IMG/VR virus record: IMGVR_UViG_3300036713_000599
Length of the DNA: 64,000 nt
From: a virus
Lineage: Duplodnaviria > Caudoviricetes
Direction: 5' to 3' (one strand)
Below are positions 1 through 11,427 of the stretch, one piece after another. Under the pieces are notes generated by a model that ran no database searches, was not told where the DNA came from, and was given only the letters and a program-made list of their open reading frames with translations. A program made the translations under genes and the position numbers. Each line of letters starts with the position of its first letter. Position 1 is the first letter of the stretch.

Positions 1-555
1 AATTTCAGGGATGTTTTGCCCAACACTGTTGGGCAAGTTCCCAACACTCTTCTTTGATTTGTAGCTTTTGCCGTCAGAACCAACCCGAGGAGTGTTGGGA
101 ACTTGCCCAACACTCTCTCTGACTTTTTTGACAGTATGGTGGGACACTCCACACCGGCGAGCAACTTCACGGTCGGCGAACTTCGCTAGTTCTGGTTGTT
201 CGAGTACCTTTTGGACGAGAGCCCTTTTGTCGGCGGGGGTCATGTTCTTTCCCCGATTGTACTTCGCGGCTTCTAGAAGTACATCTGCGACCGTACCTTC
301 TTGGACTATGGCTTGAATCGTCTCATAGTCGGGGTTATCGGGATGCTTTTCCTGGAGCTTTAGACGGGCGAGGGTGCGATGCCATCCTTCGACGGGCCAG
401 ATAGACACCCCGTTTGTGATGACGCGAATATCGGGGAAGGAGTCGCCCTTCTCCATGGCTTTTGCGTAACGCTCTACAAGTCCCTCATCGACTTCTGCCC
501 GAGCATGAAGAGTAAGATCTAGGGTGATATCACTGAGGCTAATTTTCTTAAACAT
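1..555 (-). CDS. ParB/Srx-like N-terminal domain plus HTH protein (partial, runs off left edge)
   Basis: Manual translation from ATG 555, open to base 1: MFKKISLSDITLDLTLHARAEVDEGLVERYAKAMEKGDSFPDI...WPVEGWHRTLAR (ParB GxHR motif), then ...FADREVARRCGVSHHTVKKVR (HTH). Absent from the ORF track because no stop lies in the window. Confidence 0.75.
   Translation of the reverse strand, partial: MFKKISLSDITLDLTLHARAEVDEGLVERYAKAMEKGDSFPDIRVITNGVSIWPVEGWHRTLARLKLQEKHPDNPDYETIQAIVQEGTVADVLLEAAKYNRGKNMTPADKRALVQKVLEQPELAKFADREVARRCGVSHHTVKKVRESVGQVPNTPRVGSDGKSYKSKKSVGNLPNSVGQNIPEI
16..112. repeat. Five TGTTGGG(C/A)AA half-sites in alternating orientation inside the ParB-like gene
   Basis: Half-sites at 16-25, 27-36, 38-47, 92-101, 103-112; 27-49 and 90-112 form a perfect 23-bp inverted repeat. 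Confidence 0.85.
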
Positions 556-743
556 GGTCCCACCATACACCGACAGAGCGGGTTAGGTAATTCTTTTGTT
601 TGCGGGGGAGGATAGGTCCGCAGCGACGTTCAGAAATTCTTGGAAGGGCCGCCCACCGCCCTTTGGGTCGTGGTTACTGATGAAGTCCCCAGAGCATGGG
701 CAACATCGGTCAGTGACGTGGGTTTGTCGCCCAACCTCGACGC

Positions 744-992
744 TTAGGTGTCGGGGTTGTTTTTTGGCGAGAAGTGTTGAACAACCGAGACGAGAGCCTT
801 CGACGGGAACACGGTTGACATGACGAGCAATCTGTTGCTGTTGAACCCGCAGACTTCACACCATCGTTTGAAAACGGGGTCGTCTAGGACAATCTCGCCC
901 TTCGTGACCACTCTCGCGGCTAGATCGACTAGCTTCGTGATATCATCGATGGAGAGTTCCGTGAACAGCATCGTGGTTGGGTCGTATCTCAC
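744..992 (-). CDS. hypothetical protein
   Basis: 82-aa ORF; GTG start exactly 5 nt after the class I motif at 998-1026. Confidence 0.7.
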   Translation of the reverse strand: MRYDPTTMLFTELSIDDITKLVDLAARVVTKGEIVLDDPVFKRWCEVCGFNSNRLLVMSTVFPSKALVSVVQHFSPKNNPDT

Positions 993-997
993 GCCCG

Positions 998-1026
998 TAC
1001 TACGTATTTTTGGGACGGGAGTTCGG
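998..1026 (-). promoter_or_regulatory. class I promoter-like motif CCGAAC-N16-CGTAGTA (representative of 18 copies)
   Basis: Minus strand reads TTCCGAAC-tcccgtcccaaaaata-CGTAGTA-cgggc-GTG; all copies listed in findings. Confidence 0.75.
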
Positions 1027-1063
1027 AACTTTCTTCGTCTTCGAGCCTTTGGTGGTCAGTGTC

Positions 1064-1312
1064 TTAGGCCTTGAGAGATTTGGGATTTGGAAGGCCTTCA
1101 AGCTCAAGGAGATAACATGTGATGTTCAAGTGCTCCCGGGCTCCTTTAAGCTCCGCTTTGAGGCCAAGGATCTCTGCTTCAAGGCGAGCGACCTTTGCTT
1201 CCAGGCCCTTGATGACCATTTTTTGGCTGACCTCACGAACCGTCGGTCGGTCCATCGAGGGGCTTCTTAACTGCGGGCATGTCGGGTCTCGGTCGGAGTT
1301 TTTCTTGCTCAT
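1064..1312 (-). CDS. hypothetical coiled-coil protein
   Basis: ATG 1312 with AGGAG RBS; heptad-like LEAKVARLEAEILGLKAEL; class I variant promoter at 1372-1400. Confidence 0.6.
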   Translation of the reverse strand: MSKKNSDRDPTCPQLRSPSMDRPTVREVSQKMVIKGLEAKVARLEAEILGLKAELKGAREHLNITCYLLELEGLPNPKSLKA

Positions 1313-1411
1313 GTTGTCTCCTATTTGACTCCATCTTTCACGTACCACGGGAGTGGTCGAATCCTCCCCCGTGGTACGCTCCGAGTTAGGAATTGTTCGG
1401 AATTTTTTCAC

Positions 1412-1562
1412 TCAAAAAGCAGCCCGAAGTTGGGCGACGTTGAGGGACTTGTTTTTGCGAGCAAGTTTCTTAGCAATCTTGAGAAGTCGGGGAACTTCCT
1501 TCGCATCGTAGAGGCAAACTTCGTCCGCCACCATGAAGGCTATGTCCAAGGGGAGCTTACGG
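1412..1562 (-). pseudogene. 3' half of a 99-aa gene interrupted by the TnpB element
   Basis: Frame TRKLPLDIAFMVADEVCLYDAKEVPRLLKIAKKLARKNKSLNVAQLRAAF* joins in frame to the 2767-2915 fragment when 1565-2768 is removed. Confidence 0.65.
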
Positions 1563-1564
1563 GT

Positions 1565-2768
1565 TCATGAGTAGTTAGTGAGAACTTACCCAAACTTTTC
1601 TGTTTCTGTTTTAGTTTGAGGTTAACCGGTGTAAACCTAAGACAATGAGGTTGATTCGATCCACCAAAGTCTCCTTGAAAGAGACAAATCCAAGGAAGTT
1701 GAAAATCCTGGAAGAAGTATTCCAGGAATACGGTCGGATTGTAAACCTCTTCATCGAACTATTCTGGGAAAATCCCGTCAAAAAGTCAAAGCTTCTAAAG
1801 CCAATCGTCGACTCGGTTCTCCCTACTTGGCTTTCCGCTCGGCTTCGAAAGGTTGCCGCCCGGGAAGCCCTTGATGTGATCAAGGCAGCCAAGGAATCAG
1901 CAAAATCCCTTGGGAGAACTCCGAAAAAGCCAACTCACAGAGGGAGTCGAATGTGCCTTTCTAGTACCATCGCTTCCCTTGACTTGGCTGGAAAAGCCAC
2001 ATCCTATGATCGCTGGCTCCACCTTCATTCCATCGGGCATCATCCCGAATTTGGAAGAGTTATCCTAGATCTCCCGATCAAATTACACAAGCATTACAAT
2101 GAGTTAGCTTCTATTGGAAGACGACAAGAATCCTACATTCTAACCTCCCGTTACGTTCAGCTCAGCTTCGAAATCGTCACCGAGGAAAAGCTCCCTTCTG
2201 ACCGATGTATCGGAATCGATAGTGGAATCAAGGCTTTAGCTTCGACTTCTACTCGACATCAATTCGGGAAAGACATAGAAAAAGGGATTGAGCGGATAAA
2301 ACGTTGTAAACACGGTTCAAAGGGGCAAAAGAGGGCTAGAAGGGCTCTTCGCCAGAGGATGAATGAGGTGGTGAAGGAACTCTTTGGCACCTTAAATCCC
2401 ACTTTGATCGTGGTCGAAAAGCTTCGTTCCTTGAATAAAAGGACAAGAGTCAAACGCCGCTTGACTCGAAATATGCGGCGCTCTATCGGTAGCTGGACCT
2501 ATCGTTATTGGTTGGAAAGACTAGAAAGAGAGTGTGAAATGAGACGTTCTCGTTTTCGCTCGGTCAATCCATACAAAACTAGTCAACGATGTTCAGTCTG
2601 TGGTCATATCGATAGGAGAAATCGGCGAGGAGAGGTATTCAAATGTCAGAGTTGTGGTCACACTGACAATGCGGACACTAACGCCGCTTTGAATATCTTG
2701 GATCGATTTCTTACCGGACCTTACGGTGCCGGTTGCAAACCTTTAACCTTGGTTGGAGCTACATGAGT
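1565..2768 (+). mobile_element. non-autonomous TnpB-only insertion element (IS607-like or IS200/IS605-like)
   Basis: GT dinucleotide on both sides (1563-1564, 2767-2768); terminal TCATG/CATGA inverted pentamers; removal restores an ORF; no tnpA in the element or the window. Confidence 0.7.
1645..2766 (+). CDS. tnpB: TnpB RNA-guided RuvC endonuclease
   Basis: 373 aa; RuvC-I GIDSG, RuvC-II VVEKL, zinc finger CSVC..CQSC, RuvC-III NADTNAALNI. Confidence 0.92.
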   Translation: MRLIRSTKVSLKETNPRKLKILEEVFQEYGRIVNLFIELFWENPVKKSKLLKPIVDSVLPTWLSARLRKVAAREALDVIKAAKESAKSLGRTPKKPTHRGSRMCLSSTIASLDLAGKATSYDRWLHLHSIGHHPEFGRVILDLPIKLHKHYNELASIGRRQESYILTSRYVQLSFEIVTEEKLPSDRCIGIDSGIKALASTSTRHQFGKDIEKGIERIKRCKHGSKGQKRARRALRQRMNEVVKELFGTLNPTLIVVEKLRSLNKRTRVKRRLTRNMRRSIGSWTYRYWLERLERECEMRRSRFRSVNPYKTSQRCSVCGHIDRRNRRGEVFKCQSCGHTDNADTNAALNILDRFLTGPYGAGCKPLTLVGAT

Positions 2769-2915
2769 AGCTTTGAACAAGTTTGCAGGAACGGTTCCTT
2801 GCCAGTAGATTCCGAAACCTCCCGTGACAATCCCGTCACTCCAAACGCAGAAGGTTTTCTCATCGAAAGTTCTGCGGGTGGCGATGACGGTGGGCTTGTT
2901 CTCGGTGGTGTTCAT
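2767..2915 (-). pseudogene. 5' half of the interrupted gene (MNTTENKPTV...NLFKAT)
   Basis: ATG 2915 lies 5 nt after class I motif 2921-2950; the frame now reads on into antisense tnpB and stops at 2721. Confidence 0.65.
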
Positions 2916-3102
2916 ACCCGTGCTACGATTGGTCGGGAAGAGAAGTTCGGAGAAAAATGAGTGTTGGAAACGTTTCCAACACTCATTCTCAAACCCCTTG
3001 TTTTGCAGGCTTTCAAAAATAAGGCAAAAGAGGGTAGTTGTGTCGATCCCGAGAACCCCTATTTTTGTAGGGGGTTTGAGCGTCCAATCTCAGTAGAATC
3101 TT

Positions 3103-3720
3103 TCAATGAGGATGTAAGGCTAGGAGTTTTCTTTCGAGTTCTCTATTTTGGCTCTCCCTGGTAACCTTCATGGCACTGTCCCAGGTAGCGTACCAGGCAG
3201 CATCCCTGGCGGCGGTCCAGGCAGCCTCCTTGGCAGCACACCAGGCAGCCTCCCAGGCATCGTACCAGGCAGCATTCCTGGCAGCCTCCTGGGCAGCCTC
3301 TAGTTCTTCATTAGTGGCCTTCCCATCGATCCACAACTTTTTGATCTCGATGGCCCTCAAACTTTTCGGGTCAGGGTTCCCGGCCTTTCTCAACGCTTCT
3401 TCAGCACACCAAATAGCAAATTCATGGAGAACCCTTGAAGCATCTTTGACCCAAAGAACTCTCCTCCTGGAACACACCAGTTTATCGTCACCGTGGATCA
3501 TATCGCCGCTACATTCAACCCTACAAACCACAGGCCCTGGGGCATATTTAAGGGCATCAAGAGGTGTTATGCTTGCATGAAGTCCTTTTTCGCAAAGCTT
3601 CAAAGGGCCTCGATGTCTCAAGATCTGTCCTTTGTGGACCTTGAGGGGTCTTTTCATTGAATCCGTGAGGATTGTGGAATCATCACGGATGAAGTGCCAC
3701 GCTTGGATCGGACTTGTCAT
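3103..3720 (-). CDS. phage protein with Ala/Trp tetrapeptide repeats, paralog 1
   Basis: Start moved to ATG 3720 (MTSPIQAWHF) by homology to the adjacent paralog; C-terminal AAW/AAR repeats. Confidence 0.8.
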   Translation of the reverse strand: MTSPIQAWHFIRDDSTILTDSMKRPLKVHKGQILRHRGPLKLCEKGLHASITPLDALKYAPGPVVCRVECSGDMIHGDDKLVCSRRRVLWVKDASRVLHEFAIWCAEEALRKAGNPDPKSLRAIEIKKLWIDGKATNEELEAAQEAARNAAWYDAWEAAWCAAKEAAWTAARDAAWYATWDSAMKVTRESQNRELERKLLALHPH

Positions 3721-3775
3721 GTTCGTGTTACGATTCCTCGTGTGGACATGTTCGGAACAAATTGGGTACCTGGTT

Positions 3776-4453
3776 TCAATGAGGTTGTAGAGCCAAGAGG
3801 CTTCTCTCAAGTTCTTCGTTTTGACTTTCCCTAGTAGCCGCGTTCCTGGCAGCACCCCAGATAACGTGCCTGGCCGCGTCCCAGGCCGCGTTCCTGGCAG
3901 CGTACCTGGCGTCGTCCCAGGCCGCGTTCCTGGCAGCGTACCTGGCGGCCTCTTTGGTAGCGTTCCAGGCCGCGTTCTCGGGAGGTTGCCTGGCAACCTC
4001 ACTGGCCGCGTTCCAGGCAGCCTCCCAGGCAGCCTTTAACTCTTCATCAGTGGCTTTCCCATTGAGCCACAACTTTTTAACCTCGACAGCCTTTAGGCTT
4101 CTTGGGTCAGGGTTTCTGACCTTTCCCAATGCTTCTTCAGCACACCAGATCGCAAATTCATGGAGAACCCGTGAAGCATCGACCATCCAAAGAACCTTCC
4201 TCCTGGAACAGACCAGTTTGCCGTCACCATGGATCACACCGCCGCTACACTCGACCCTGCAAGCCACAGACCCTGGAGCATATTCGAGGGCATCAAGAGG
4301 CCTCACACTTGCATGAAGTCCTTTTTTGCAAAGCTTCAGAGGGCCTCGATGCCTCAATGTTTGCCCTTGGTGGACCTTGAGGGGTCTTTTCATTGAATCC
4401 GTGAGAATTGTGGAATCATCACGGATGAAGTGCCAGGCTTGGATCGGTTTCAT
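3776..4453 (-). CDS. phage protein with Ala/Trp tetrapeptide repeats, paralog 2
   Basis: MKPIQAWHFIRDDST...CKKGLHAS...DALEYAPG; 12-nt tandem units at about 3840-4030. Confidence 0.8.
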   Translation of the reverse strand: MKPIQAWHFIRDDSTILTDSMKRPLKVHQGQTLRHRGPLKLCKKGLHASVRPLDALEYAPGSVACRVECSGGVIHGDGKLVCSRRKVLWMVDASRVLHEFAIWCAEEALGKVRNPDPRSLKAVEVKKLWLNGKATDEELKAAWEAAWNAASEVARQPPENAAWNATKEAARYAARNAAWDDARYAARNAAWDAARHVIWGAARNAATRESQNEELERSLLALQPH

Positions 4454-4463
4454 AGTTCTACTT

Positions 4464-4640
4464 CTAGTTGACGTCGTTGTCTTCGACTCGCCCAGGAATC
4501 CATTCGTAGTTGCCCTTTCGGAGGGCTTGTTTGTTGTTGTGGCGTTCGCGGCGGCGGGCCGCTGTCTTAAGCCCTCGGAGAGTGGTTGCCCCGTCAGTGG
4601 TGCGGCGGGTAGCCCTTCGGGCAGCTCGGGTTGTGGTCAT
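4464..4640 (-). CDS. small Arg-rich hypothetical protein
   Basis: MTTTRAARRATRR...; downstream of class I motif 4655-4683. Confidence 0.5.
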   Translation of the reverse strand: MTTTRAARRATRRTTDGATTLRGLKTAARRRERHNNKQALRKGNYEWIPGRVEDNDVN

Positions 4641-4725
4641 TTTTGCGATGTTCATACTACGTTCCTCATGAAAAGGAGTTCGGAAAAATCAGTGACACCG
4701 GGTACTTTTAGTCGTAGTGTCCTCA

Positions 4726-5034
4726 CTACATATCGAATTCATCAAAGGCACAAGAGCCACAGTAGCCTCCCATTGCCCGATGGTGGGGAGCATTCACGAG
4801 CGGTCCACCACATCCACGACAGCGACCAGAAAAACTCGGCTCGTGACGACGAGAAGCCACCGAAACCCCCTTCTCCGCCAGGCATGTCCCGTCTTTTCCC
4901 GTCCAAAGAACTCTCCCTACCGTAAGGGTGAGGGTCTGACCACTCTTTTTGGTCACTGTGACTGTGTCACCCTCTGCCAAATTCTTCCCTCTGAGGCCCC
5001 AGCCACCGTTTCGTAGTTTCGTAAACGTTGTCAT
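4726..5034 (-). CDS. hypothetical protein with C-terminal CxxC..CxxC
   Basis: ATG 5034 is 5 nt after class I motif 5040-5068; CRGC and CGSC. Confidence 0.7.
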   Translation of the reverse strand: MTTFTKLRNGGWGLRGKNLAEGDTVTVTKKSGQTLTLTVGRVLWTGKDGTCLAEKGVSVASRRHEPSFSGRCRGCGGPLVNAPHHRAMGGYCGSCAFDEFDM

Positions 5035-5235
5035 ACCCCTACTACGCCCCCTGCTCGCAAGAGTTCGGAAAAATAACCCGAAAGTGTGTCTCATTCGTTG
5101 GCAGAATCCCAAAACCACCGGATTTCAACAAGTTATGAACCAAATTGAAAGTAATTGTCAATTCGACCTCCTGTAATAAAGAAAGAGCGGTGGTGACTTT
5201 TCCGAACCTTTTCTCATGGGAGACGTAGTACGGGC

Positions 5236-5373
5236 ATGAACACCGAAAAGAAAAAGCCTTCCGATAAAAAACCCTCCCCCGATAAACTCATCTCCGAAGA
5301 CTTCGTTTTCGACGTCTCCAACCTGTCCCTAGAGGACCTCCAAAACCTCGCCGCTATGACAGCAGGAGAATAA
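5236..5373 (+). CDS. 45-aa hypothetical protein (not in ORF track)
   Basis: ATG 5 nt after class I motif 5202-5230; MNTEKKKPSDKKPSPDKLISEDFVFDVSNLSLEDLQNLAAMTAGE*. Confidence 0.6.
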   Translation: MNTEKKKPSDKKPSPDKLISEDFVFDVSNLSLEDLQNLAAMTAGE

Positions 5374-5374
5374 C

Positions 5375-5602
5375 ATGAGCACCTACACTGTATGGCAATA
5401 TCCTAGCCCCGACATCCGTCGCTACTTCGAAATCTTGAACGATCCCGATGTCAAAGACATTGAAGATCTAGACAAAATGGCGTCCCTCGTTGTCATGCGG
5501 GAGGGGTGCTACGGTACTCCCACGTCCATGTCTGGTTGGGAGCCACAAGCAAGATTTTTGCTCCAAGACGGCGTCCTAACGCCCCACCCGGTTGGAAAAT
5601 AA
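5375..5602 (+). CDS. hypothetical protein
   Basis: 75 aa, AGGAG RBS, starts 1 nt after the previous stop. Confidence 0.65.
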   Translation: MSTYTVWQYPSPDIRRYFEILNDPDVKDIEDLDKMASLVVMREGCYGTPTSMSGWEPQARFLLQDGVLTPHPVGK

Positions 5603-5784
5603 CCCGCATAGGGACACCAAAAAACAAAAAACACCTTCTCACCCACCAAAACCCACCTATATGCACAAAAACCCTACACGTAGAGGGCTTTCGTGCATTT
5701 CACCTTCCTTCTCCGACTCGGTTCCCGCCTAGGGGCTCGTGTAGGTCCGACTATCCTTATATGGGTCCCTCCCACCACACCCAA

Positions 5785-5866
5785 TACTACGTCCCGACGG
5801 CCCTTGGAGTTCGGGAAAATCTTTTTGAACTTTCTTCCGAACTCTGGACCCCGGCCGACCGTAGTA
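5785..5866. promoter_or_regulatory. back-to-back class I promoter pair
   Basis: Minus motif 5785-5814 and plus motif 5837-5866; related cassettes at 7131-7200 and 7663-7733. Confidence 0.7.
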
Positions 5867-5871
5867 CGGGT

Positions 5872-6297
5872 GTGAATACGACAATCGAAAGCCTCACGGC
5901 CGACATCAACTTTTTCAGCTCCAAGGAATACCACGAGCTGGTTCTCACAGGAAGAGTGACCTACCCCGAAGTTTCGTGGGATTGTACGGTGAGGAATCTG
6001 AAGAACGCCATCCGGGAGCGAGCTAACTCAGATAATGCCCAATGGCTGCAATATAAGGGCCATTGGGACGGCCCCGAATGGGTCCTCGTCAAGGTGACCC
6101 GTCGGGTCAAGACGAAGATGGGCGTGGCCTTTGAGAAGGGCGAGATTGCCCTGGCCCGTAAAACCCCCCAGGAGCCCGATTCAGCGAATCTGTCCCCTGC
6201 AACCCGTGCGGAAATCAACAAGCCCTCTTGGACGGTATATAGCGTCAGGAACCGTGTCGACACAAAGGTGTCCATCCGTACCTGCAAGGAGCTGTGA
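5872..6297 (+). CDS. hypothetical protein
   Basis: Start moved to GTG 5872, 5 nt after the class I motif. Confidence 0.7.
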   Translation: MNTTIESLTADINFFSSKEYHELVLTGRVTYPEVSWDCTVRNLKNAIRERANSDNAQWLQYKGHWDGPEWVLVKVTRRVKTKMGVAFEKGEIALARKTPQEPDSANLSPATRAEINKPSWTVYSVRNRVDTKVSIRTCKEL

Positions 6298-6361
6298 CGG
6301 TACCATTGAAGTCTGACAACATACCGAAAATGACTGACATATAACGAGAAAAGATCTAACG

Positions 6362-6562
6362 ATGAGAAATCCTTGCCAAGAAATTCAACTGGGAGTGAAC
6401 TTTGATGTCCGACACCGAGCGGCTAAAGCCCTAGGATGGTCCATCAAGGACACCAGAGGCCTGTCCCTGGCGAGCTTACGCGAACTAATTCGCGACAAGG
6501 ACCCAGAACTTGCAGAGGAGATGTCCTGTATCATCCGGAACGGGACCCACATTTCCTACTAA
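6362..6562 (+). CDS. hypothetical protein
   Basis: 66-aa ORF in a co-directional run. Confidence 0.55.
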   Translation: MRNPCQEIQLGVNFDVRHRAAKALGWSIKDTRGLSLASLRELIRDKDPELAEEMSCIIRNGTHISY

Positions 6563-6576
6563 ATAGGCCGCAACCA

Positions 6577-6789
6577 ATGAACGTTGAGCAAATAGAAGAC
6601 ATGTTCGGAGAGCCCCTCGACGCCCTCCAAGGACGTAAGGTGTCTGTCGAAGCAGGCAACACCTTTTACACAACAGAGCTTGTAGGGTTCACCTTCGATA
6701 CCCGCCTGCAACTATCTGCATGTGTGCGAGACTCTGCCGATACATGGCACCTCCTCCAAGTACATCCATCCAAAATAAAGCTTGTGTAG
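6577..6789 (+). CDS. hypothetical protein
   Basis: ATG 6577 (MNVEQIEDMF) chosen to avoid overlap with the upstream gene. Confidence 0.55.
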   Translation: MNVEQIEDMFGEPLDALQGRKVSVEAGNTFYTTELVGFTFDTRLQLSACVRDSADTWHLLQVHPSKIKLV

Positions 6790-6814
6790 GACAGGAACAC
6801 CATGAAGTGGACAA

Positions 6815-7015
6815 ATGGAAATGGCAGGATGGTACACCTACGCCAAAGAAGGACAGAACGGTAGCCTTGCCGCCGTTGTCCTCGAACTGATCAAAGGCAA
6901 GACTATGTGGTGTGCCCACATTCACGAGGGCATGCCACCAGGGGATGCCCAGTTCAGGAAGCTCAAAGACGCAAAGGCGTGGGTTGAGCAGAAGTGCCCC
7001 TCTAAGGGCTCCTAA
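6815..7015 (+). CDS. hypothetical protein
   Basis: 66 aa; a degenerate copy of its 3' end and trailer lies at about 7270-7390. Confidence 0.55.
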   Translation: MEMAGWYTYAKEGQNGSLAAVVLELIKGKTMWCAHIHEGMPPGDAQFRKLKDAKAWVEQKCPSKGS

Positions 7016-7404
7016 CCCACCCTACCTCCTAGGCCCCTTCTAAGAACAAAAAGGGCTAGAAGGCCCCCTAGGGTCCTCCAGAGGGCGAATTCTGAATTGG
7101 TCGATGGTGGGTCCCACCCACCTCACCCAGTACTACGTTCTCGCCCTGCTCGAAGTTCGGGGAAAATCTTTTCGAACTTTCTTCCGAACTCTTCTCGCTC
7201 ACACGGCCCAATCATGTGGTCCTGGAACGGAAAGGACTACTTTTGTGGGTAAATGGGGCACCTAGAGGGGCCCTGTGGGTTGAGCAGAAGTACTTCTCTA
7301 AGGGTCCCTAACCCGCCCTGCCCTCTAGGGACCACACAAGGACAGAAAATAACAGGAAGGGCCCTCAGGGCCTCACAGAGGGTGGCAAGGACTCGGCACC
7401 CTAA

Positions 7405-7656
7405 TCACTCCCCGGTTAAGAGCCAGCGAAGGTTTCGGAATTCCGCCTCTGCTGCCGTACCTCGCAACTCACCAGCGTCAAGTCGACGAAACGCTTCCTC
7501 ACGACTCACACCAAGGATGGCTAGCGCCTGGCGATCAGCCAGTGCTTCTATCTCGTGTTGAGTGTGCTCAACTACCACAGGGTCTTTGGTGCTTCGCATG
7601 TGCATATCATGTGCTCGGCAAGCCGACAGGTCAAGAGACCGAGCCCCGCCCACCAC
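7405..7656 (-). CDS. hypothetical protein
   Basis: Follows class I motif 7663-7692; exact start uncertain. Confidence 0.55.
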   Translation of the reverse strand: MVGGARSLDLSACRAHDMHMRSTKDPVVVEHTQHEIEALADRQALAILGVSREEAFRRLDAGELRGTAAEAEFRNLRWLLTGE

Positions 7657-7738
7657 ACCCAGTACTACGAGGATAGGACCATGGAGGTTCGGGGGATCTT
7701 TTTTCCGAACTCTACTCGCTCACGCTCGTAGTACTGGC

Positions 7739-8014
7739 ATGACTACCAAGAAGCTCAACCATCACGGTGTAAACGTTGACATGGCCCACTCAGATACCCG
7801 CTGTGTCCGCTACACTCACCCCATCATAGGGGAGAGCCTGTCGACCACCCAAGTGTGGTCATGGGAGGGCGGGGACGCCATCGTCGTCGTAACAGGGAGA
7901 GGTGACGCGTGGACGGTCATCCGTCACGAAGACCTGATCACAGCTGTCCCTGCGTCCCTACACGACGCCATGCGGGCGGTGGGTGTGGACCCAGAGGAGT
8001 ATCAGGTTGTGTAG
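7739..8014 (+). CDS. hypothetical protein
   Basis: ATG 7739 is 5 nt after class I motif 7705-7733. Confidence 0.7.
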   Translation: MTTKKLNHHGVNVDMAHSDTRCVRYTHPIIGESLSTTQVWSWEGGDAIVVVTGRGDAWTVIRHEDLITAVPASLHDAMRAVGVDPEEYQVV

Positions 8015-8109: not shown

Positions 8110-8289
8110 CCCGATTTTTCAAAATTTGGTATGGTGGAAATTTTTGGGCAAAAAACACCCCTCGCCTCACCCTACCCTTGAGGTGCCGTTGCCATTTGGA
8201 GCACCCGCCCTGCCCGTCTTCGCCTTGCCTCTCCCGATTTTTCAAAATTTGGTATGGTGGAAATTTTTGGGCAAAAAACACCCCTCGCC
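8110..8289. repeat. perfect 57-bp AT-rich direct repeat (8110-8166 and 8233-8289)
   Basis: cccgatttttcaaaatttggtatggtggaaatttttgggcaaaaaacacccctcgcc twice; partial third copy near 8041-8065. Confidence 0.9.
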
Positions 8290-8392
8290 CTGCCCTCGCC
8301 ACCACCTTACCATCGCCTTGCCATTGGGGTGCCATTTGGAGCCTTCTCCCTACCGGTCCTTGCCGTGTCCTCCCTATCCTTTTGTCTCCTCG

Positions 8393-9074
8393 GTCTCCTC
8401 GTAAGGAGCCATCATTGAGTTTTCCGGCTCCCGTGGGTGTGGCGGCCAGGCCACCTACCTTGCCTGTCTCCTCGTAAGGAGCCATCATTGAGTCTTCCGG
8501 CTAAAACCGATAGTGTATGTCAACGCTCACTCTCACGTCTCCTCGTAAGGAGCCATCATTGAGTCTTCCTGCGCGTATCCTTCGGCCAGGACCATGCCTA
8601 GCCAGAGAGTCTCCTCGTAAGGAGCCATCATTGAGTCTTCCAGCACTTATGCCCCGCCCATAGCATGCGAAACGGTCTCCTCGTAAGGAGCCATCATTGA
8701 GTCTTCCAGCCCGTAGAGCAACACCGAGTTGACCGACATGTAGTCCGGTCTCCTCGTAAGGAGCCATCATTGAGTCTTCCGGCTCCATTCGAGCCAGTCC
8801 AGTTCGTCTCTTATTCGTTCGTCTCCTCGTAAGAAGCCATCATTGTCTTCCAGCTGCGGTTCCTCTCGGTAACCAAACCCCTTGTCCACTGGTCTCCTCG
8901 TAAGGAGCCATCATTGAGTCTTCCAGCCGACGGCGAACACGTTCCTCCGCCTCAACACTTCGGGAGTCTCCTCGTAAGGAGCCATCATTGAGTCTTCCAG
9001 CGTACAAAAAGATGGTTTGAAGTAAGCAAGATTTGCAAGTCTCCTCGTAAGGAGCCATCATTGAGTCTTCCAGC
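8393..9074 (-). CRISPR. CRISPR array, 10 repeats of 36 nt and 9 spacers (30-38 nt), CasPhi-type repeat
   Basis: Repeats start at 8393, 8466, 8537, 8609, 8675, 8748, 8821 (34 nt), 8892, 8966, 9039. Minus-strand consensus GCTGGAAGACTCAATGATGGCTCCTTACGAGGAGAC with 3' hairpin CTCCT-TACG-AGGAG and terminal GAC. Confidence 0.98.
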
Positions 9075-9090
9075 TGGCCTCGGAATAAGT

Positions 9091-11400
9091 TCATGTTCCT
9101 GTAGGCTTATACACCGGATTGCGAACGGTCTCGTCATCTTTCTCAAAAAAGGCTATAATATCCTCAACTTCTTGGGTAGTCGGGGGCACATTAACTGTCT
9201 CTTTCCCCTTATTTTTCCCTTTGATTTGTTTTTTGCGAGTGGTTCCCGTCTTTTTCTGGCCACTGGGTTTCTTGCTATCAGGGTTTGTGATGCCTTTGCC
9301 TAGGACGGCTACGAGAGCGAGGTTCCACGTAGCCACTTCGCTGTCTGCGTGGAACAGTGCTTCACATTTGAGGCATTTGAAATGGTCGCCGTTACGGTTA
9401 CTCTTGTGGATGAAGCCGCACGCGGGGCATCTTTGGCTTGTCCAGTAGGGTGCTAGCCCGAGGACGTATTTTCCCTTGTCGTGTGCTCGATTTTGTATAG
9501 CCTTTTTCAGGGTATCGATCACCCATCGATTTTCAAATTTTTGCCGAAAGAACCCCTGCCAAGTTTCTTGGAACTTACCTTTCCCTCTCTTCGGGGGTAG
9601 GCTTAGATCCTCAATACCTACGACCACTGTATCGCACAGAGTGAGTCTTTTGGCTTCTTTTTCGATCCAGTTGGCGATTTCCCTACACAGTTGGTTGACG
9701 CGTTTGGCTAATTTGGGGAATTTCTCGTGTCCTGTGTATATCTCCCATTTAGCTTTTTCGAAGGCTTTTCGAGCATCTTCGGGCATTTTCGGTCGTATTT
9801 CTGGCAGGCGAGATATACTAGCATCGGTCCTTTTGGTGGGCTTGCGAGGTTTTTTGCTTTTACTGTCCTTCTTGAGAGGGCGAGTGAAGAAGACTTTGGA
9901 GGGGTCGCCGCCGCGTTCTAGGTATAGGTTGGCGATGTAGTGTGTGTTAGAGGTCATATCATCCCAGGGCAGGTCTGGGTCGTGTGTCCCGAAGAAGTGC
10001 TTTAGGACGAGGTTTTTCGCCTTTTCTGGGGTGAGTGCTTCGTATTGCTGTACTTGTTCTTGGTGTTCTGGGCAGAGGGAGGTGAATGCTTCGTCCCTGA
10101 CCTCTTGCCGGAAGGCGTCATAGGCGTCTCGATACCTTTTGAGTTCGTTGAGGTAGCGGTCTGGCAGCAAGCGACGGCTTACGGGTTGGATGTCTTTTTC
10201 TGAGAGTTCCTCTTTTCTGGACAGGCGAGAGATCATAATTGCCGCGGGGTTTCGTTGTCCGAGGTCGACGGTGACGAGAGCGATCGTGTTATTCTCGCTT
10301 GTCAGGGACGTCAGGAGTGTCCTTGTCTCTCCTTTGGTGTAAATTTTGCGTGCGTGCAGGGCGCCTTCGGACCTGAGCTTGTAGCAGAAGGTGAATTCGC
10401 CGGTCCTGGTGTTGAGGACGGGGCATCCGGTGAAGGTATCGAGGAGGTCTTTGGCGGAGATTTGGCCTGGGGTGGCGGCTTCCCTCATGTACACGCTGCG
10501 TAGGAGGCCTCTCATATCGAACAGGACCCAGTCCTTGCCAATTTGGAGGACGGCTAGGATAGAGGCCAGGGCTTTAGTCTTTGGAGGGGTGCGGCGATAG
10601 AGCCGTACCCTTCCTTTCTTTTTGAGATTTTTCCTTTGGTGTTCGGGAACGTACCCTGGTTGACCTTTAGGGATATCGAGGCGACTAGGGCCTTTTTCGA
10701 TAATGTCGTCGGGTTTACGTGAGTAGCCTTCGTATTGCTTTGGCAGGATAACGTCACCGGGGTTATCTGGATCGAACACGAAGGGGGTTACCGCCTGGTA
10801 GCCATAGATATTGGGGTTGATGCCAGGGGGTTGGGCTAGGAGGCCATTTTCGTTGAAGGCCGAGTCTGGTTTGAATTCTAGGATTTCAAGACCTTCTTCG
10901 ATCTTCAGTTGGTTCTTTTTTGACAGTTTTTTCAGTCTCTTTTTGTTCCTGTTCTCGACCTTTTTGATCACCCCGCTATACCTGGAGAACGCGTGGCTCA
11001 GGATGGTGTTGAGACCTTGGGCGCCGATCCCTTGATCTGAGATATTATTGGTTTTGAACCAGAAGTCGCGAGACTTGGAGCTTATGTCTCCACTGAAGAG
11101 GGCTTCCTTGGAGGCATTGAACTCTTCTTCTGTGTAGGCGAAGACGCGTTCTTGGACGGCTTGGGATACTTGGTATATGGGCCATTGGTCGAAGGGTCTA
11201 CTTTGTGCGACGATGGTTGTCTTGGCGGGGGGCTTGAAGTTTGGGGGGTCCTCTTCGTCTTTGCCCATGAGGAAGTCGATGGCGGCTTCTTCGCCATCTT
11301 TCTCGTAGATTTTCCCCGCCTTCGTCAGGACGTCTTTCCCAAAACAGAGTCCTTCGAAGTGCTCTTCTCTGATCCTTCGGATGTTGTTCGGTTTTTTCAT
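9091..11400 (-). CDS. cas12j: type V CRISPR effector Cas12j (CasPhi), 769 aa
   Basis: RuvC-I VTVDLGQRN, RuvC-II VVGIEDL, CPAC..CLKC zinc finger, RuvC-III HADSEVATWNL; CasPhi-like blocks FKPPAKT, SRPFDQWPIY, QGLNTI, PPGINPNIYGYQ, KGQPGYVPEHQR, ENRW; stop 16 nt from the first repeat; start moved to ATG 11400. Confidence 0.95.
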   Translation of the reverse strand: MKKPNNIRRIREEHFEGLCFGKDVLTKAGKIYEKDGEEAAIDFLMGKDEEDPPNFKPPAKTTIVAQSRPFDQWPIYQVSQAVQERVFAYTEEEFNASKEALFSGDISSKSRDFWFKTNNISDQGIGAQGLNTILSHAFSRYSGVIKKVENRNKKRLKKLSKKNQLKIEEGLEILEFKPDSAFNENGLLAQPPGINPNIYGYQAVTPFVFDPDNPGDVILPKQYEGYSRKPDDIIEKGPSRLDIPKGQPGYVPEHQRKNLKKKGRVRLYRRTPPKTKALASILAVLQIGKDWVLFDMRGLLRSVYMREAATPGQISAKDLLDTFTGCPVLNTRTGEFTFCYKLRSEGALHARKIYTKGETRTLLTSLTSENNTIALVTVDLGQRNPAAIMISRLSRKEELSEKDIQPVSRRLLPDRYLNELKRYRDAYDAFRQEVRDEAFTSLCPEHQEQVQQYEALTPEKAKNLVLKHFFGTHDPDLPWDDMTSNTHYIANLYLERGGDPSKVFFTRPLKKDSKSKKPRKPTKRTDASISRLPEIRPKMPEDARKAFEKAKWEIYTGHEKFPKLAKRVNQLCREIANWIEKEAKRLTLCDTVVVGIEDLSLPPKRGKGKFQETWQGFFRQKFENRWVIDTLKKAIQNRAHDKGKYVLGLAPYWTSQRCPACGFIHKSNRNGDHFKCLKCEALFHADSEVATWNLALVAVLGKGITNPDSKKPSGQKKTGTTRKKQIKGKNKGKETVNVPPTTQEVEDIIAFFEKDDETVRNPVYKPTGT

Positions 11401-11410
11401 GTCAGGGTTG

Positions 11411-11427
11411 TACACCGAAGGGGGCGA
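11411..11427 (-). promoter_or_regulatory. class II promoter-like motif (C-rich)-GGTGTA-N10-ATG in front of cas12j (representative of 15 or more copies)
   Basis: Minus strand cgcccccttcGGTGTAcaaccctgacATG. Confidence 0.7.

Follow-up and report, generated by a model that had tools for sequence, protein, structure and literature searches.

A probable non-autonomous TnpB-only derivative of the IS607 family within a small conserved gene of a Cas12j-bearing huge phage

Results

An interrupted gene and its intruder

The IMG/VR virus record IMGVR_UViG_3300036713_000599 (Duplodnaviria; Caudoviricetes) carries a tnpB gene on the plus strand at positions 1645 to 2766 of the 64,000-nucleotide stretch of DNA that we analyzed, which we call the window and to which coordinates refer unless another sequence is named. 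Two minus-strand reading frames flank tnpB on opposite sides: an open reading frame (ORF) that starts at 2915 and an open frame that ends at 1412. We interpret positions 1565 to 2795 (plus strand) as an inserted TnpB-only element of the IS607 type, 1231 bp long. With a probability of roughly 0.85, we consider it a non-autonomous TnpB-only derivative of an IS607-family insertion sequence (IS), lying antisense in a small conserved gene of a huge phage that also bears Cas12j, and working by the omegaRNA mechanism proposed in the Discussion. An original prediction, made from the letters of the DNA, had already described a TnpB-only element splitting a phage gene at this locus, and the comparisons below bear out that description.

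The N-terminal half of the interrupted gene (MNTTEN...IYWQG; 40 codons) occupies 2796 to 2915 on the minus strand, where it is recognized by its open frame and by a tblastn match to a homologue, and the C-terminal half (TRKLPLD...LRAAF; 50 codons plus the stop) occupies 1412 to 1564 on the same strand. As the DNA now stands, the ORF of the N-terminal half runs from 2915 into the element and stops at 2721 (minus strand). With the 50-amino-acid (aa) C-terminal fragment as the query, we found P0001, an uninterrupted 93-aa protein encoded on a Logan metagenome contig, to which the fragment is 71% identical (E = 9e-11). In a tblastn search, residues 5 to 37 of P0001 align to 2891 to 2793 and residues 37 to 84 to 1564 to 1418, the two halves abutting at 1564 and 2793. 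The fragments are hence not two separate genes, a possibility that the original prediction had allowed for: P0001 spans both. P0001 and P0122 (97 aa, on a 441-kb contig) are the closest homologues, and both are continuous across the junction (...WQG/TRKLP...; here and below a slash marks a junction). Only the removal of 1565 to 2795 yields a protein, of 90 aa, that aligns gaplessly with these homologues through the junction (69% identity, E = 9e-38). With P0001 as the query, an exhaustive phmmer search returned 78 family members, mostly single-domain proteins of 90 to 105 aa that align end to end; farther members have a loop of variable length at the junction position. Judged by these alignments, the minus-strand fragments are the halves of one real gene, which is a continuous ORF of about 90 to 97 aa in relatives, and both halves are still open and undecayed. 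Pfam and PHROGs yielded no family for this gene or its homologues, and very long proteins with TIG repeats, which the family search also matched, were dismissed as spurious hits. The convergent or divergent ORFs just upstream of the gene's start enclose a perfect inverted repeat (AATGAGTGTTGGAAACGTTTCCAACACTCATT) at 2945 to 2976, which is probably a bidirectional terminator.

Boundaries of the element

We place the right end of the element at about 2795 because three independent lines of evidence agree: the closest homologues of the split gene, which abut there, a second copy of the element, and a hexamer conserved across the clade. The tnpB of the second copy (copy B, as distinct from copy A in the window) lies at G000:C1:239664-240787 in the same 240,951-bp virus record, in an unrelated context, and its coding sequence (CDS) is 94% identical. 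Beyond the tnpB stop, copies A and B share a further 30 nt (2767 to 2796), after which similarity is abruptly lost. Contigs from the source metagenomes have loose ends at 1645 and 2796, matching the points at which the copies diverge. Among 15 related tnpB loci drawn from genomes and metagenomes, 13 have AACGGT within −17 to +60 nt of the tnpB stop and unrelated sequence afterwards, against a chance expectation of about 2% for a given hexamer in that interval; in the window, AACGGT occupies 2790 to 2795.

On the left, the element is preceded by CGGGT at 1560 to 1564 (plus strand), the predicted target-adjacent motif (TAM) and IS607 target (GGG then T). The corresponding sequence is GGGGT in copy B and CGGGT in two uninterrupted alleles of the split gene (L003 and L028), in keeping with the earlier proposal of a TAM that resembles the left flank ...ACGGGT. 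Only 80 nt of non-coding sequence, poorly conserved relative to copy B, separate this flank from tnpB (1565 to 1644), and the element thus has no tnpA, as had been predicted. From these comparisons, the insertion is 1231 bp long, stands at a GGG(T) site with no apparent target duplication beyond the shared core, and terminates in the clade-wide AACGG(T). The same evidence gives the empty site as CTTACGGGTTCCTTGCCAG, with a product of 90 aa.

The left junctions read CGGG/TTCATG in copy A and GGGG/TTTGAG in copy B, and the right junctions AACGG/TTCC and AACGG/TTTTCG, respectively. In copy A the pentamer GGTTC stands at both junctions (1562 to 1566 and 2793 to 2797); if the core is the IS607-style GG, the cores lie at 1562 to 1563 and 2793 to 2794. 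Two of the five repeated base pairs are then the expected core, and the other three could reflect a target preference, chance or a short duplication. The GT core of the original prediction is compatible with the T that follows GG at every junction examined, whereas the core documented for the family is GG.

A direct reading of the first 20 nt against the reverse complement of the last 20 nt revealed no inverted repeat. The inverted TCATG/CATGA ends described earlier resolve on the left into a self-palindromic hexamer and on the right into parts of an RNA hairpin, namely its loop and 3' arm. The 9-bp direct repeat CATGAGTAG does occur, in two exact copies: one at the very left end (1566 to 1574), the other where the terminal RNA hairpin has its loop and 3' arm (2762 to 2770). 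Its chance expectation is roughly 0.02, and it is weaker in copy B; it could be the remnant of a transposase-binding repeat or a coincidence. We rejected it as a junction or target site duplication, as a premature stop results and one of its copies lies inside the conserved hairpin. The original prediction had named this repeat as its alternative junction, but a third junction, the one at 1565 and 2795, is the true one.

An IS607 lineage inferred from relatives

Assignment to the IS607 family rests on the gene neighborhood in the relatives and on the end sequences, since both NCBIfam family scores of the protein itself are far below their cut-offs (see Discussion). Of the 14 full-length relatives, 6 have an ORF with a resolvase catalytic domain (Pfam E values of 1e-17 to 1e-20) that runs up to the start codon of tnpB and ends there; the one such ORF tested on NCBIfam has a MerR-type helix-turn-helix and scores 174 bits on transpos_IS607, for which the cut-off is 110. 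No Y1 transposase was seen in the TnpB relatives examined. Five complete relatives, with boundaries drawn by eye, apparently have GGGT before a left end that begins with TTCTGAAC or a comparable sequence; a GAAC(N)GT motif, also found by eye, recurs at both ends of complete relatives and is degenerate in the two phage copies. IS607 elements are described as using (G)GG targets and a GG core, and as lacking both terminal inverted repeats and target site duplications (PMC6188088; PMC13565253). The GGG target and the AACGG end fit this published description, and together with the serine transposase upstream of tnpB in the relatives they uphold the IS607 lineage that had been proposed.

The serine-recombinase TnpA of the relatives is absent from the element, which is therefore, by comparison of gene content, a non-autonomous TnpB-only derivative of an IS607-family IS. 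A search for the resolvase domain (PF00239) gave no match in the 241-kb record, which is about 50% complete according to CheckV. In two TnpB relatives (L006:2380-2520 and L007:142-306), the place directly upstream of tnpB is taken not by a transposase but by a small ribbon-helix-helix-like ORF (...KGISIAEFVRRIL...); these ORFs are reminiscent of the Arc proteins that were recently reported for IS605 elements.

The TnpB protein and its second copy

The 373-aa TnpB retains an intact RuvC triad (D192/E258/D344) and CCCC zinc finger (C316/C319/C334/C337), and every one of these residues is an invariant column in an alignment of 25 sequences (TnpB and 24 homologues). It matches Pfam Cas12f1-like_TNB (PF07282; E = 1.4e-18, 67.3 bits, cut-off 26.3), NCBIfam guided_TnpB (NF040570; 103.3 bits, cut-off 100) and PHROG 506, "transposase" (E = 1.3e-31). 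Many of its homologues are labelled "IS605 OrfB family transposase" in their sources. Megablast of window positions 1 to 8000 against a phage database gave no match, scans of IMG/VR, for which TnpB and the C-terminal fragment of the split gene served as queries, gave no confirmed relatives, and an exact look-up of P0002 (the 94% TnpB cluster) returned no record. A crustacean-associated metagenome contains many short contigs that are 85 to 95% identical to tnpB and limited to 1645 to 2793, a stretch that starts with the ATG and stops just short of the right end of the element; close relatives of the element therefore exist in another habitat.

The copy B element, also TnpB-only, extends over G000:C1:239646-240813 (L002:1483-2651). 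Its left flank consists of a terminator-like hairpin followed by GGGGT, and its right flank, the corresponding predicted guide, begins TTTCGCGTCCTGG. Similarity between the copies starts at the start codon, preceded by a weaker match over CGGYGTARA 10 to 18 nt upstream. The ratio of nonsynonymous to synonymous divergence (dN/dS) is 0.21 at dS 0.17, from which it follows, as far as codon comparison can tell, that both proteins are kept functional by purifying selection. Divergence is mosaic, at about one nucleotide in three (~33%) over codons 78 to 107 and only ~1% over codons 108 to 247, a pattern that suggests gene conversion between diverged elements. The left ends are about 57% identical over their first 23 nt, and their global alignment is not better than that of shuffled sequences, 71 of 1000 of which did equally well.

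A motif of the form CGGYGTARA precedes both tnpB copies, 9 nt before the ATG; in copy A it reads CGGTGTAAA, at 1627 to 1635, and is promoter-like. The motif that the original prediction assigned to tnpB is thus present. The window contains six occurrences (1627, 7765, 12800 on the minus strand, 48440, 56699 and 57077) where 1.29 are expected, and elsewhere in the genome the motif usually stands 7 to 9 nt before a start codon that has no Shine-Dalgarno sequence. This placement suggests a phage promoter that would yield leaderless transcripts.

Predicted omegaRNA, guide, and TAM

The predicted omegaRNA scaffold spans 2616 to 2795 (plus strand) and would comprise conserved helices at 2616 to 2733 within the CDS, a hairpin at 2740 to 2789 and a single-stranded tail, AACGGU, at 2790 to 2795. 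The helices were found with RNAalifold in an alignment of 14 sequences, and 13 of their 36 pairs have compensatory changes on both sides, despite the protein-coding function of the same stretch. The whole 200-nt stretch folds better than shuffled sequences (z = −3.4). The hairpin straddles the tnpB stop codon (−19 kcal/mol, z = −3.2), with the loop AUGA and the 3' arm GUAGCUUUGAACAAG. In copy B the terminal hairpin folds identically, and two differences between the copies (a change from G-C to G-U and a change in a bulge) preserve the structure; the last 114 nt contain only 2 differences, compared with the dS of 0.17 for the gene overall. The predicted scaffold takes in the final 150 nt of the CDS and continues for 29 nt beyond it; contrary to the earlier claim, it does not lie wholly inside the coding sequence. 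Rfam searches of both copies at E ≤ 1 gave only a chance-level match to ALIL, and no RAGATH-18, group I intron or IS605-orfB motif.

The first sequence after AACGGT that differs between the copies, and among relatives, is the right flank from about 2796 (TCCTTGCCAGTAG...), which by analogy with known TnpB systems we infer to act as the guide. The predicted guide-encoding segment, TCCTTGCCAGTAGATTCCGA, lies at 2796 to 2815 (plus strand; start ±1 nt) and at the same time belongs to the host gene that the element interrupts. Comparison of the flanks supports a TAM of about GGG(T): left flanks carry (C/G)GGG(T), versus ACGG(T) at the occupied right junction. The two predicted TnpB guides each match their own flank only, with no match elsewhere in the genome.

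Discussion

Proposed mechanism

We propose, by analogy with the TnpB of IS607 elements and IStrons (10.1101/2023.11.20.567912) and with IS605 TnpB, that tnpB would be transcribed from a phage-type, probably leaderless, promoter motif, and that the 3' part of the transcript (about 2616 to 2795) would be processed into an omegaRNA whose guide is taken from the right flank, from about 2796. The predicted RNA would have a scaffold ending in ...GGAACGG(U) at 2794/2795, followed by a guide starting (U)UCCUUGCC. The complex of TnpB and this RNA would cut the uninterrupted allele, in which CGGGT is joined directly to the right flank (CTTACGGGT followed by TCCTTGCCAG...), and repair copied from an occupied genome would then reinstate or spread the element. 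The occupied allele would escape cutting, since its guide is preceded by ACGGT and not by GGGT, in parallel with TCGG versus TGGG in the IStron of Clostridium botulinum (CboIStron). In a phage, cutting would act on co-infecting uninterrupted genomes; homing into sister phages, which had been suggested earlier, would follow by the same analogy. Transposition would need a serine transposase in trans, and the element ends would imply a circle junction reading ...GGAACGG/TTCATGAG.

A more far-reaching possibility, which we hold as tentative and on balance doubtful, is that the two transposase-less TnpB elements, under purifying selection and served by the phage's own leaderless-type promoter, are RNA-guided homing or "marker-exclusion" nucleases. 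If so, these elements would cut and convert co-infecting sister phages as the guide-RNA equivalent of the homing endonucleases of T-even phages, and would do so alongside a CRISPR nuclease that the phage itself encodes and that shares their ancestry.

Several observations weigh against our interpretation of the locus. The crossover point is ambiguous because GGTTC stands at both junctions of copy A, as GGTTT does in copy B, and the core cannot be fixed among GG, GT and TT. Contigs from the three sediment-metagenome runs that contain the region, possibly the source of this DNA, show, over 1000 to 3400, no joint that skips the element and hence no empty allele, although contigs drop rare variants and this outcome therefore tells neither way. 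The uninterrupted homologues found are distant: L003 and L028 retain CGGGT but have 5 to 6 mismatches in the first 18 positions of the predicted guide, and their neighboring genes gave no matches in this genome, so that no empty-site sister phage was found. TnpB scores 34 bits on the NCBIfam model IS607_TnpB and slightly more, 39.3 bits, on IS200_TnpB, for which the cut-offs are 350 and 425 bits. The omegaRNA, guide start and TAM are predictions. The 80-nt left ends, finally, are far more diverged between the copies than are synonymous sites, and the element may therefore no longer be recognizable by a transposase.

Alternative explanations

The boundaries of the original prediction ran from 1565 to 2768, with a GT core, a right end at the tnpB stop codon, a guide AGCTTTGAACAAGTTTG, an empty site CTTACGGGTAGCTTTGAAC, and a host protein of 99 aa from an allele encoding ...WQGTVPANLFKATRK...; we regard this version as very improbable. 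Its deletion does leave an open 99-aa frame, which we reproduced, and among the more distant members of the family this position is occupied by a loop that varies in length. The open frame does not discriminate between the two versions, however, because deletions of 1204 and 1231 bp are equal in length modulo 3, and the nine additional residues (TVPANLFKA; 2769 to 2795) are missing from P0001 and P0122. The end at the stop codon is 27 bases short: 2767 to 2796 are common to copy B in its unrelated context, and the conserved AACGGT of the clade lies 24 to 29 nt further on. The proposed guide is instead scaffold, conserved in copy B as the 3' arm of the terminal hairpin. An IS200/IS605-type element, mobilized by a Y1 transposase, is only a little less improbable than that version. 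The labels of many homologues and the slightly higher IS200_TnpB score favor it, but both family scores are far below their cut-offs, it is a serine recombinase and no Y1 transposase that abuts tnpB in the 6 relatives described above, and the G-rich GGG target and ...CGG end are those of IS607 rather than the AT-rich TTAC/TTGAT-type targets of the other group (PMC13565253). Least probable of all is an IStron-like insertion that is spliced from the host mRNA and leaves the gene functional. IStrons do carry IS607-type TnpB, and both gene halves here are open and undecayed; splicing is nevertheless unlikely because tnpB is antisense to the host gene and because neither a group I intron nor any other Rfam match was detected on either strand of 65 to 4268.

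Domestication is the alternative to which we give the most weight, while still thinking it unlikely: both tnpB genes would be immobile and kept for a phage function, such as the RNA-guided exclusion of competitors or regulation, with no transposon or homing behavior. The 241-kb record has no transposase gene, though at about 50% completeness one could lie elsewhere. Divergence of the left ends far beyond dS, purifying selection on both copies, the phage-type promoter-like motif before each of them, and a mosaic divergence suggestive of within-genome gene conversion between the copies are all in line with domestication. The intact catalytic triad, on the other hand, is unlike known domesticated TnpBs of the TldR type, and guides that each match only their own flank in the genome are the arrangement by which a transposon is maintained. 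We accordingly retain the non-autonomous IS607-family derivative as our interpretation.

Comparison with known systems

The closest parallel to this derivative is CboTnpB of the C. botulinum IStron, for which a TGGG TAM, a scaffold ending in UCGG, and discrimination between empty and occupied alleles by the G at position −3 have been described (10.1101/2023.11.20.567912). Both belong to the serine-recombinase lineage, take (here, would take) the guide from the right flank, have a G-rich target and a TAM ending in GGG (TGGG there, C/GGGG(T) here), and have TnpB-only copies that persist without TnpA. In both, the scaffold ends in ...CGG, so that the occupied allele presents (T/A)CGG and not the TAM. 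Unlike CboTnpB, the present element has no group I intron, has its tnpB antisense to the host gene, resides in a phage genome and has an extra conserved T after GG; the proteins themselves are only distantly related. With IS607 and IS1535 (Helicobacter pylori and Mycobacterium tuberculosis; PMC6188088) it shares GG termini and (G)GG insertion, apparently also the lack of terminal inverted repeats and target duplication, as well as subterminal GAAC(N)GT-like repeats at both ends, seen in its complete relatives. It differs from them in that tnpA is wholly lost, only an 80-nt left end remains, and the subterminal motif is degenerate in the phage copies.

TnpBs of the ISFba1 type, which are guided by a RAGATH-18 reRNA (PMC11061315), are likewise IS607-associated RuvC nucleases of ~370 to 390 aa with a 3' guide RNA. 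Their reRNA, however, has no overlap with the CDS, and AGGAG or GAGGG serves as the TAM, whereas here RAGATH-18 has no match, the predicted scaffold includes the final 150 nt of the CDS and the predicted TAM resembles GGG(T). ISDra2 TnpB of the IS200/IS605 group (PDB 8EXA/8H1J) has the same domain order and triad (D191/E278/D361 there), an omegaRNA that overlaps the 3' end of the gene, and the same logic of restorative homing; it differs in its Y1 transposase and TTGAT TAM, and its sequence match is weak (E = 4.7e-5). The free-standing and intron-borne homing endonucleases of T-even phages (SegF, Mob, and I-TevI) offer a functional parallel, as selfish phage nuclease genes that could convert co-infecting genomes lacking them, but recognition is by protein there and would be RNA-guided here, where homing itself is proposed by analogy.

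The element belongs to the known IS607 kind, of which it is an ordinary representative, and reveals no new mechanism. Its value lies in being a natural example of a TnpB-only IS607 element in which the site, target motif, scaffold end and guide can be read from a homologue, a second copy and an end motif. The nuclease is directly testable, given a specific candidate TAM, GGG(T), and a specific predicted guide start, and the correction of the guide and target has practical weight, as the earlier prediction would have failed at the bench. That such elements live in huge phages beside Cas12j is of some relevance to the idea of guide-RNA nucleases as homing endonucleases in phage populations.

Genomic surroundings

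The original prediction had placed Cas12j about 6 kb from the element, and its presence is confirmed, together with a CRISPR array. Cas12j/CasPhi (774 aa) lies at 9091 to 11415 on the minus strand and matches Cas12j-SF05 (8IEW; E = 8.5e-143) and CasPhi-2 (7LYS; E = 5.3e-137) over residues 11 to 739. The array, with ten 37-nt repeats, is directly beside it at 8393 to 9075; its nine spacers have no match to the TnpB elements or elsewhere in the 241-kb record. A 64-nt direct repeat (8110 to 8173 and 8233 to 8296) stands just outside the array. Nearer to the element, tandem repeats of 12, 24 or 36 nt (CCAGGCAGC-type) occur inside minus-strand ORFs at 3179 to 3300 and 3840 to 4035. Contigs from the source runs have joints that omit 76 or 117 nt at 3167 to 3293, and repeat number therefore appears to vary in the population.

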